A stretch of DNA of 64,000 nucleotides from Biomphalaria glabrata (lineage: Eukaryota): contig NC_074716.1 of NCBI RefSeq assembly GCF_947242115.1, positions 24,048,637 to 24,112,636 of the forward strand. Direction: 5' to 3'. A program made the translations under genes and the position numbers. Below the pieces are notes generated by a model. That model ran no database searches, was not told the DNA's origin, and saw nothing but the letters and a program-made list of their open reading frames with translations. Within the stretch, counting starts at the first letter, position 1. The number at the start of each line of letters is the position of its first letter. Shown here in pieces: positions 3,174 through 3,421 of this stretch.

Positions 3174-3421
3174 CTCTGCTGACAGATCTTTTAGGGTTAG
3201 ACTGCCTCACATGTTTACCCACAGACTTCTCGTGTCGGTTCAGGTGCCCGGAACTATTGCGAAGGCAGCTATGTCAACACTGTTCTCCCAGCGACCCGGT
3301 CTGCATGCCGCTGTGTCTGAGGACTCTGAGACGTCGACGTGACATAGAATGTTTGATGTGTCATGAGAACCTTTCGTGTTTAATTCAATGTGGCTACGTG
3401 GGTGTTAGCGTTGGGAAATAA
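3174..3421 (+). CDS. Gene A exon 2: mature region ALLTDLLGLDCLTCLPTDFSCRFRCPELLRRQLCQHCSPSDPVCMPLCLRTLRRRRDIECLMCHENLSCLIQCGYVGVSVGK*
   Basis: Acceptor tcttctttttttcag at 3161-3173. Three C-x2-C-x(5-6)-C-x3-C modules. Internal RRRR cleavage site. C-terminal GK amidation-type signal. AATAAA overlaps the stop at 3417-3422, with a further AATAAA at 3530. Confidence 0.6.

Follow-up and report, generated by a model that had tools for sequence, protein, structure and literature searches.

The stretch of DNA considered here is a 64,000-nucleotide (nt) window of the genome of the snail Biomphalaria glabrata (contig NC_074716.1, positions 24,048,637 to 24,112,636, forward strand), and positions given below without further label count from its first letter. 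In the first part of this window (1-17.6 kb), at least five or six diverged paralogues stand in tandem, here called genes A to E together with an exon "F". They follow a common design: a signal-peptide exon of 52-55 nt that ends in phase 1, then an exon in which a four-cysteine module of about 15 residues, with the family spacing C-x1-3-C-x5-7-C-x3-4-C, occurs between one and three times. Our main subject is gene A, whose second exon (3174-3421) had been singled out by a sequence-only reading for its prohormone-like basic and amidation motifs.

Structure and conservation of gene A

The coordinates 3174-3421 correspond to exon 2 of an annotated two-exon gene, because the spliced product, 100 amino acids long, matches three B. 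glabrata "hypothetical proteins" exactly (KAI8791652.1, KAK6986341.1 and KAI8758161.1). When the translation of exon 2 was compared with 5.8 billion proteins, a single match was returned, a "hypothetical protein" of Biomphalaria pfeifferi, also of 100 amino acids, with 96% identity, and exon 1 was traced via the N-terminal 18 residues of the B. pfeifferi protein. The modules were located by a six-frame regular-expression scan, and the signal peptides, i.e., the hydrophobic 17-18-residue first exons of genes A, B, C and D, were called from a hydropathy scan alone. The features of gene A are as follows.

2374-2428, plus strand: exon 1, encoding MKLVIVLVFIAVTSGIST and the first base of codon 19; signal peptide; donor CAG/GTAATA, phase 1
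3174-3421, plus strand: exon 2, encoding (A)LLTDLLGLD, then three four-Cys modules, and ending GYVGVSVGK-stop
3203-3247, plus strand: module 1, CLTCLPTDFSCRFRC
3260-3265, plus strand: Arg48-Arg49 in linker 1, PELL-RR-QL, with Gln50 next; putative dibasic cleavage site
3272-3316, plus strand: module 2, CQHCSPSDPVCMPLC
3329-3340, plus strand: Arg71-Arg74 in linker 2, LRTL-RRRR-DIE; putative furin-type site, RRRR/D
3350-3391, plus strand: module 3, CLMCHENLSCLIQC
3413-3421, plus strand: Gly99-Lys100-stop, VGVSV-GK; putative amidation signal

The phase-1 intron ends in an acceptor AG at 3172-3173, and the frame closes with TAA (3419-3421), a stop codon overlapped by AATAAA. The three modules stand in tandem in the mature part with the spacing C-x2-C-x5/6-C-x3-C, and both linkers between them contain an L-R-R core. 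The four arginines of linker 2 are encoded by AGA CGT CGA CGT, a mixture of Arg codons with no simple repeat. The sequence-only reading had placed a tetra-Arg site between two Cys-rich segments; the site does lie in a linker, but the segments are three four-Cys modules, and a second basic site, the RR at 3260-3265, had been overlooked.

The B. glabrata chromosome segment L003 agrees with the window at 99% identity. Compared with the corresponding locus of B. pfeifferi (L001), the exons of the cluster are 95-98% identical, against 83-91% for the surrounding DNA; gene A exon 2 reaches 96.9%, compared with about 83-91% in its flanks. By Nei-Gojobori counts, the proportions of nonsynonymous and synonymous differences (pN/pS) in gene A are 0.022/0.068, a ratio of 0.32. 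An exhaustive phmmer search among 1.84 billion representative proteins added one further gene A orthologue, KAH9525135.1 of Bulinus truncatus, so that annotations of the gene exist for three species, and each of the proteins has all 12 Cys. Judged from these sequences, gene A is a genuine, selectively maintained two-exon gene coding for a 100-residue secretory precursor.

Processing signals in the gene A precursor

Furin recognizes the consensus R-X-K/R-R, and the convertases PC1/3 and PC2 cut at KR or RR. A C-terminal Gly with a basic residue after it is processed by a carboxypeptidase together with PAM, and a Gln at a new N-terminus is a substrate for pyroglutamate (pGlu) formation. All the strings that the sequence-only reading had quoted as signals of this kind are present in the window: RRRR (3329-3340) and the Gly-Lys-stop (3413-3421) in gene A, the endings CKLIG-stop of gene E and IIGRAV-stop of gene C, and RFRRQ in gene D.

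The gene A proteins of B. glabrata and Bulinus share 45% identity overall and 43% over the non-Cys positions of the mature part. Linker 1 reads LL-RR-QL in the former and VL-KR-QL in the latter, with the Gln after the site kept; linker 2 reads L-RRRR-DIE versus S-RKR-ELE, and the C-terminus GYVGVSVGK-stop versus GFVGVGK-stop, so that the terminal Gly-Lys, earlier proposed as an amidation signal, is found in both. Basic residues outside the motifs are conserved in neither direction (R40, R42 and R68 in B. glabrata; one Lys and one Arg in Bulinus). Positions that are basic in both species account for 6 of 7 in the motifs versus 0 of 5 elsewhere (Fisher p = 0.008), and random reordering of the non-Cys residues of gene A around fixed Cys produced a run of at least four basic residues in 0.7% of the trials, a dibasic pair in each of the two linkers in 1.3%, and Gly-Lys or Gly-Arg at the C-terminus in 0.9%, all of these statistics being post hoc and based on few residues. 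Another Bulinus member of the family, called Y, aligns to modules 2-3 of gene A and carries RR in the matching linker (KTS-RR-AVN), and Lys or Arg, then Arg, then Gln is seen in gene A, in Bulinus gene A and in gene D.

The positive charge of gene A lies almost entirely in these motifs, and the predicted products have isoelectric points (pI) of 4.2, 6.7 and 4.1, versus 8.1 for the intact protein; the site-free paralogues B, C and E, with pI 4.0-5.9, resemble the predicted products. Because the motifs are selectively kept in Bulinus and the charge of the products is like that of the site-free paralogues, convertase cleavage of gene A, with pyroglutamate and amidated ends, can be reasonably inferred. 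We put the probability that the precursor is cut into more than one peptide, up to three, at roughly 0.55.

In such a route, furin/PC-type convertases of the secretory pathway would cut after RR49 and RRRR74, a carboxypeptidase would trim the basic residues from the fragments, Gln50 would cyclize to pyroglutamate, and Gly99 would give rise to a C-terminal Val-amide. The expected products would be three hydrophobic, acidic-to-neutral peptides of about 29, 21 and 24 residues, each with two disulfides. The computed masses are ∼3236.57 Da for the predicted N-terminal peptide ALLTDLLGLDCLTCLPTDFSCRFRCPELL, whose N-terminus is uncertain, 2322.009 Da for pGlu-LCQHCSPSDPVCMPLCLRTL with two disulfides, 2622.141 Da for DIECLMCHENLSCLIQCGYVGVSV-NH2, 1985.749 Da for a further predicted peptide, pGlu-VDCRTCDRNTFTCSGVC, and ∼9284.4 Da for the intact gene A product.

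The earlier expectation that one gene can release more than one mature peptide is reasonable for gene A, with its sites conserved in Bulinus, but it does not describe the family as a whole. The description of these peptides as Cys-knot-like is not supported: the modules have four Cys each, in one to three copies per gene, with no CC doublet and no C-C-CC-C-C pattern. A three-disulfide knot needs at least six Cys and is therefore impossible for a four-Cys module, and the predicted C-terminal product of gene A has four.

Several observations weigh against cleavage, in addition to the post hoc character of the statistics. The gene A protein is represented in the protein collection by genome annotations only, and a single orthologue, that of Bulinus, is informative, B. 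pfeifferi being too close (96%) for a test of conservation. The linkers of gene A, of only 8 and 11 residues, are placed between modules that would be disulfide-bonded, which may affect the access of convertases, and the Bulinus site, S-R-K-R, has no Arg at P4 and fails the strict furin consensus. In paralogues B and E the two modules are connected by linkers free of basic pairs, and the linker of gene E is conserved as such (IFTIFPTNL versus LFSIFPMNQ in Bulinus). Since the linkers of B and E have no basic pairs, a multi-module protein needs no cleavage, and cleavage is not a property of the family; nor is the combination of signals shared across the cluster, as had been supposed. AlphaFold2 gave mean predicted local distance difference test (pLDDT) values of 49.2 for gene A (three-sequence alignment) and 49.9 for gene E (seven rows), too low for the fold or the disulfide pairing.

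Some of these points are also what favours the possible, though in our judgment less likely, alternative that the gene A product works intact as a three-module protein, with basic linkers kept for spacing, for the solubility of a protein that is otherwise acidic and hydrophobic, or for binding to anionic partners, and with an incidental Gly-Lys: its linkers are short, its Bulinus site falls below the strict furin consensus, and gene B, gene E and the Bulinus orthologue of E are all two-module proteins with linkers that contain no basic pairs. However, an intact protein accounts poorly for the pattern of the basic residues: those retained stand side by side, two or three together, in a linker or at the C-terminus, Lys and Arg replace one another there, and all others are lost. 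The Gln retained directly after the dibasic pair fits a new N-terminus, the remaining family is acidic or neutral, and an exposed RRRR in a protein of the secretory pathway is rarely left uncut.

A further alternative accepts the cuts and holds the resulting chains together by inter-module disulfides, as a two- or three-chain molecule like insulin or relaxin. The failure of both structure models to fix the disulfide connectivity leaves room for it, and the odd Cys count of gene C (five) hints that intermolecular or inter-segment bonds may be possible in the family. We regard such a molecule as quite improbable, there being no insulin-type Cys pattern and no Pfam match, and the distribution of the modules points the other way: because they occur once in genes C and D, twice in B and E and three times in A, each is probably self-contained and most likely forms its own two disulfides. 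Finally, that the motifs arose by chance in open reading frames (ORFs) that have no function or are wrongly annotated, in a cluster that is decaying or not made of real genes, has some footing in the frameshift and lost Cys of gene C in B. pfeifferi and in the absence of annotations for B, C, D, E and F in any genome of the protein collection, but is made extremely improbable by the annotation of gene A in three species with its 12 Cys, by exons that are more conserved than introns with pN/pS below 1, by a gene B protein that is identical in the two species despite five synonymous changes, and by E, A and F being the sole similarities detectable between B. glabrata and Bulinus in the region.

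The paralogue cluster and its surroundings

Cleavage of gene A, the reading that we prefer, is best seen against the other members of the cluster, whose features are as follows.

336-490, plus strand: gene E, last exon, phase 1; two modules, hydrophobic linker IFTIFPTNL, ending KLIG-stop (485-490)
10099-10238, minus strand: gene B exon 2, (G)MLGLDPCTTCVYFNTTCPFNCPPRNCDCTNPVVGCVVMCLNGLAK-stop; two modules, without a dibasic site
10695-10749, minus strand: gene B exon 1, MKVLLIVLVVVLSLVFSN, phase-1 donor
12488-12542, plus strand: gene C exon 1, MSFLTFALILLLLCSIKG, phase-1 donor
13089-13195, plus strand: gene C exon 2, (G)WCFMPCSMCPKDDDFCPTYCVDDFEWQSIIGRAV-stop; five Cys; product ...GWCFMPCSMCPKDDDFCPTYCVDDFEWQSIIGRAV; ends IIGRAV-stop
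15256-15307, plus strand: gene D exon 1, MKIFLVTLVAVTLCLAQ, phase-1 donor
16507-16622, plus strand: gene D exon 2, (G)AAVHDLPAPNGLSSRFRR/QVDCRTCDRNTFTCSGVCK-stop; RFRR at 16551-16562, RFRRQ at 16551-16565
17512-17606, plus strand: "F" exon, (x)QYYLNACLSGCDIIPSLYCKRDCYVKYSKA-stop; C-x3-C-x7-C-x3-C, phase 1

In genes B, C and D the signal-peptide exon lies about 0.5-1.2 kb upstream of the Cys exon, and the arrangement of a signal-peptide exon with a phase-1 intron after it, common to A, B, C and D, bears out the earlier view of these genes as secretory precursors. Because every intron of the family is in phase 1, any combination of exons stays in frame. A blastn comparison of the gene A locus with the window found no nucleotide similarity among the paralogues, only microsatellites and a dispersed repeat; at the protein level the paralogues match one another (tblastn, E = 1e-6 to 8e-6), and their modules align one to one. 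The protein collections that were searched contain no entry for gene B, C, D, E or F.

The protein of gene B, in its 64-residue model, is 100% conserved in B. pfeifferi, with five synonymous changes (pN/pS = 0/0.112). The B. glabrata assembly GCA_025434165.1 carries a 111-residue model that starts from the gene B ATG (L004, 18681-19838; window ∼9590-10749, minus strand) and ends about 500 bp past the stop of the 64-residue model, in DNA without alignment to B. pfeifferi (window 9582-9920); this longer annotation is probably an over-extended prediction. Paralogues B and E are probably secreted as uncut two-module peptides.

The IIGRAV of gene C, which had been listed among the amidation motifs, is no credible signal: the Gly-Arg has no upstream basic residue, and in B. 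pfeifferi (L001, 16816-17002) the ending stands behind a 1-nt insertion that shifts the frame just before it, together with a TGT to TAT change that replaces a Cys with Tyr. The B. pfeifferi copy is probably decaying, although the same changes may suggest a fast-evolving gene.

Gene D, with pN/pS = 0.041/0.072 against B. pfeifferi, would follow the logic of gene A once: a signal peptide, an 18-residue Cys-free pro-region ending in RFRR, then a module that starts with Gln. The RFRRQ indeed lies just before the first Cys, as had been reported, at a distance of three residues. Cleavage at RFRR-Q would give a classical pre-pro-peptide layout, and the case for it is weaker than for gene A, the comparison of the site covering only B. 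pfeifferi, a very close species (96%). Conservation of the sites in orthologues, proposed earlier as a check, was thus found for gene A (KR, RKR and Gly-Lys-stop in Bulinus) and, in B. pfeifferi only, for gene D, but not for gene C.

For the "F" exon no signal exon was found between 16622 and 17512, and gene D possibly uses F as a third or alternative exon. The codons for the last Cys and Lys of gene D and its stop (TGT AAG TAA, 16614-16622) include a perfect GTAAGT donor (16615-16620). Were this donor used, exon 2 of gene D would end in phase 1 with a "T", the "GT" of the F exon would restore the Cys codon, and the predicted splice would append a second module (...SGV-C-QYYLNACLSGCDIIPSLYCKRDCYVKYSKA).

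The first exon of gene E lies beyond the left end of the window, and a candidate signal exon, in phase 1, was found at L001 8773-8818 in B. pfeifferi and at L003 4503-4548 in B. glabrata, the latter 3.4 kb upstream (MTIQVLLFLLLACCH and MMVMVFLFLLLACSH, one for each Biomphalaria species). In B. pfeifferi, the 10 kb upstream of gene A yielded no Cys-rich exon of gene E, which may be deleted or rearranged there. The Bulinus orthologue of gene E (L002, 5805-6017) ends NPIG-stop, so the C-terminal Gly that had been pointed out in CKLIG is kept. This gives weak support to amidation, and gene E may be amidated at the conserved terminal Gly.

The 21.5-kb Bulinus locus (L002) contains orthologues of genes A, E and F, the last at 16170-16289, in the same order as in B. 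glabrata, together with the members X and Y. In the cluster region, E, A and F are the only similarities detectable between the two species, and at the DNA level the exon of gene E alone still aligns; no Bulinus orthologue of gene B, C or D was found within 10 kb of Bulinus gene A. With exons better conserved than their surroundings and with E, A and F orthologues kept in the same order in Bulinus, the cluster is old within the Planorbidae and maintained by selection. Member X, which has two modules and a long linker between them, is present in Bulinus and in B. pfeifferi, and was not found in B. glabrata; member Y, seen in Bulinus, has two modules joined by an RR linker, and the DNA from E to Y contains no signal exon for it. 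The members outside the window lie at L002 1646-2766, 6690-6856 and 16170-16714 and at L001 3009-3218, and partial copies of the Bulinus F exon, 55 nt each, stand in tandem downstream of it.

The DNA of the window is AT-rich (31-48% GC), with many micro- and minisatellites. The largest array (24533-28941) repeats a 38-nt unit 115 times over 4.4 kb and accounts for the GC-rich block, and another (50015-51810; 113 copies of a 16-nt unit) is the source of a block with a GC skew of +0.76. Further minisatellites are found at 43083-44031 (26-nt unit, 37 copies) and 22235-23012 (30-nt unit, 26 copies), and smaller arrays lie between the peptide genes at 1-244, 6538-6816, 14421-14856 and 15609-15890. 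Two long ORFs of 174 and 556 amino acids (32567-34993, plus strand) are probably a retrotransposon of the type without long terminal repeats, the second of them having the F/YADD-type motif LFADDCIIY and looking like a reverse transcriptase. Other long ORFs occupy 46719-48203 (minus strand, 494 amino acids) and 54864-55643 (minus strand, 259 amino acids).

Affinities of the family and its possible role

Word-indexed searches of protein collections with exon 2, with the orthologue alignment and with the family alignment, together with the exhaustive phmmer scan, returned only the unnamed gene A copies of B. glabrata, B. pfeifferi and Bulinus, and the searches of 5.8 billion and 1.84 billion proteins found no family member outside the Planorbidae. 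A third phmmer match, P0003, was rejected as spurious, being a Cys-free repeat protein. A Pfam scan of five peptides gave no match at E ≤ 10, and a sequence search of the PDB with the orthologue profile gave only spurious matches to G-protein-coupled receptors (E > 0.5). In the literature, no paper was found that contains these peptide strings or locus tags, and nothing relevant was found on cysteine-rich or neuropeptide precursors of Biomphalaria. As far as sequence comparison can tell, the family is previously undescribed, although of an ordinary kind, that of secreted cysteine-rich peptide precursors, and it is seen only in planorbid snails.

Among known systems, convertase-processed prohormone and conotoxin-type precursors resemble gene A in having a signal peptide, di- or tetrabasic motifs that flank short disulfide-rich peptides, a Gln at a new N-terminus and a C-terminal Gly followed by a basic residue, and they resemble gene D in having a Cys-free pro-region that ends in R-X-R-R. 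The snail genes differ in that they have no homology to any known precursor family, several of the paralogues are free of sites, and processing is predicted only; unlike those of conotoxin superfamilies, their signal peptides are not strongly conserved between paralogues.

The module itself recalls other peptides. In apamin and MCD and in endothelin and sarafotoxin, a cystine-stabilized helix with the pattern C-x-C...C-x3-C is held by two disulfides, 1-3 and 2-4; peptides of this type are excised at basic sites, apamin and MCD are amidated via a terminal Gly, and sarafotoxin precursors contain tandem copies. The snail modules share with them a four-Cys unit of about 15 residues, a close N-terminal Cys pair and the C-x3-C. 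The exact spacing C-x-C-x6-C-x3-C is found only in module 2 of gene B and in that of X, whereas most snail modules have C-x2-C or C-x3-C; there is no sequence similarity, and taxon and gene structure are different. Plant alpha-hairpinins, or vicilin-buried peptides, are likewise made as tandem four-Cys cassettes, CX3C-Xn-CX3C, that are cleaved into several mature peptides (PMC7191063). The likeness lies in the multimodular four-Cys precursor and in the C-x3-C-x7-C-x3-C spacing of the "F" exon, and it is one of analogy only: the hairpinins are plant products cut at Asn/Asp by vacuolar processing enzymes, the first Cys pair of the gene A modules is C-x2-C, and no homology is detectable.

With regard to function, signs of gene gain and loss are visible in the cluster: the searches detected no E within 10 kb of A in B. 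pfeifferi and no X in B. glabrata, and gene C appears to be decaying. Because the cluster is lineage-restricted, fast-diverging and arranged in tandem, with such gains and losses, an effector, pheromone or toxin-type family is favoured over a conserved neuropeptide. Our best guess is that these peptides, peculiar to planorbid snails, serve in extracellular signalling or in defence. A fuller proposal, in which a planorbid-specific modular two-disulfide family has in A, Y and D multi-peptide precursors of pGlu- and amide-capped peptides that would act as pheromones, hormones or secreted effectors between snail and schistosome, is speculative and, taken as a whole, improbable.

Biomphalaria and Bulinus are intermediate hosts of human schistosomes, and their repertoire of secreted peptides is poorly known. 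If the precursors were not processed, the locus would represent one more lineage-specific cluster of cysteine-rich secreted proteins. If processing into capped peptides were confirmed, the family would provide a new small disulfide scaffold, and its disulfide-stabilized snail peptides would be new candidates for studies of signalling, defence and parasite attraction.
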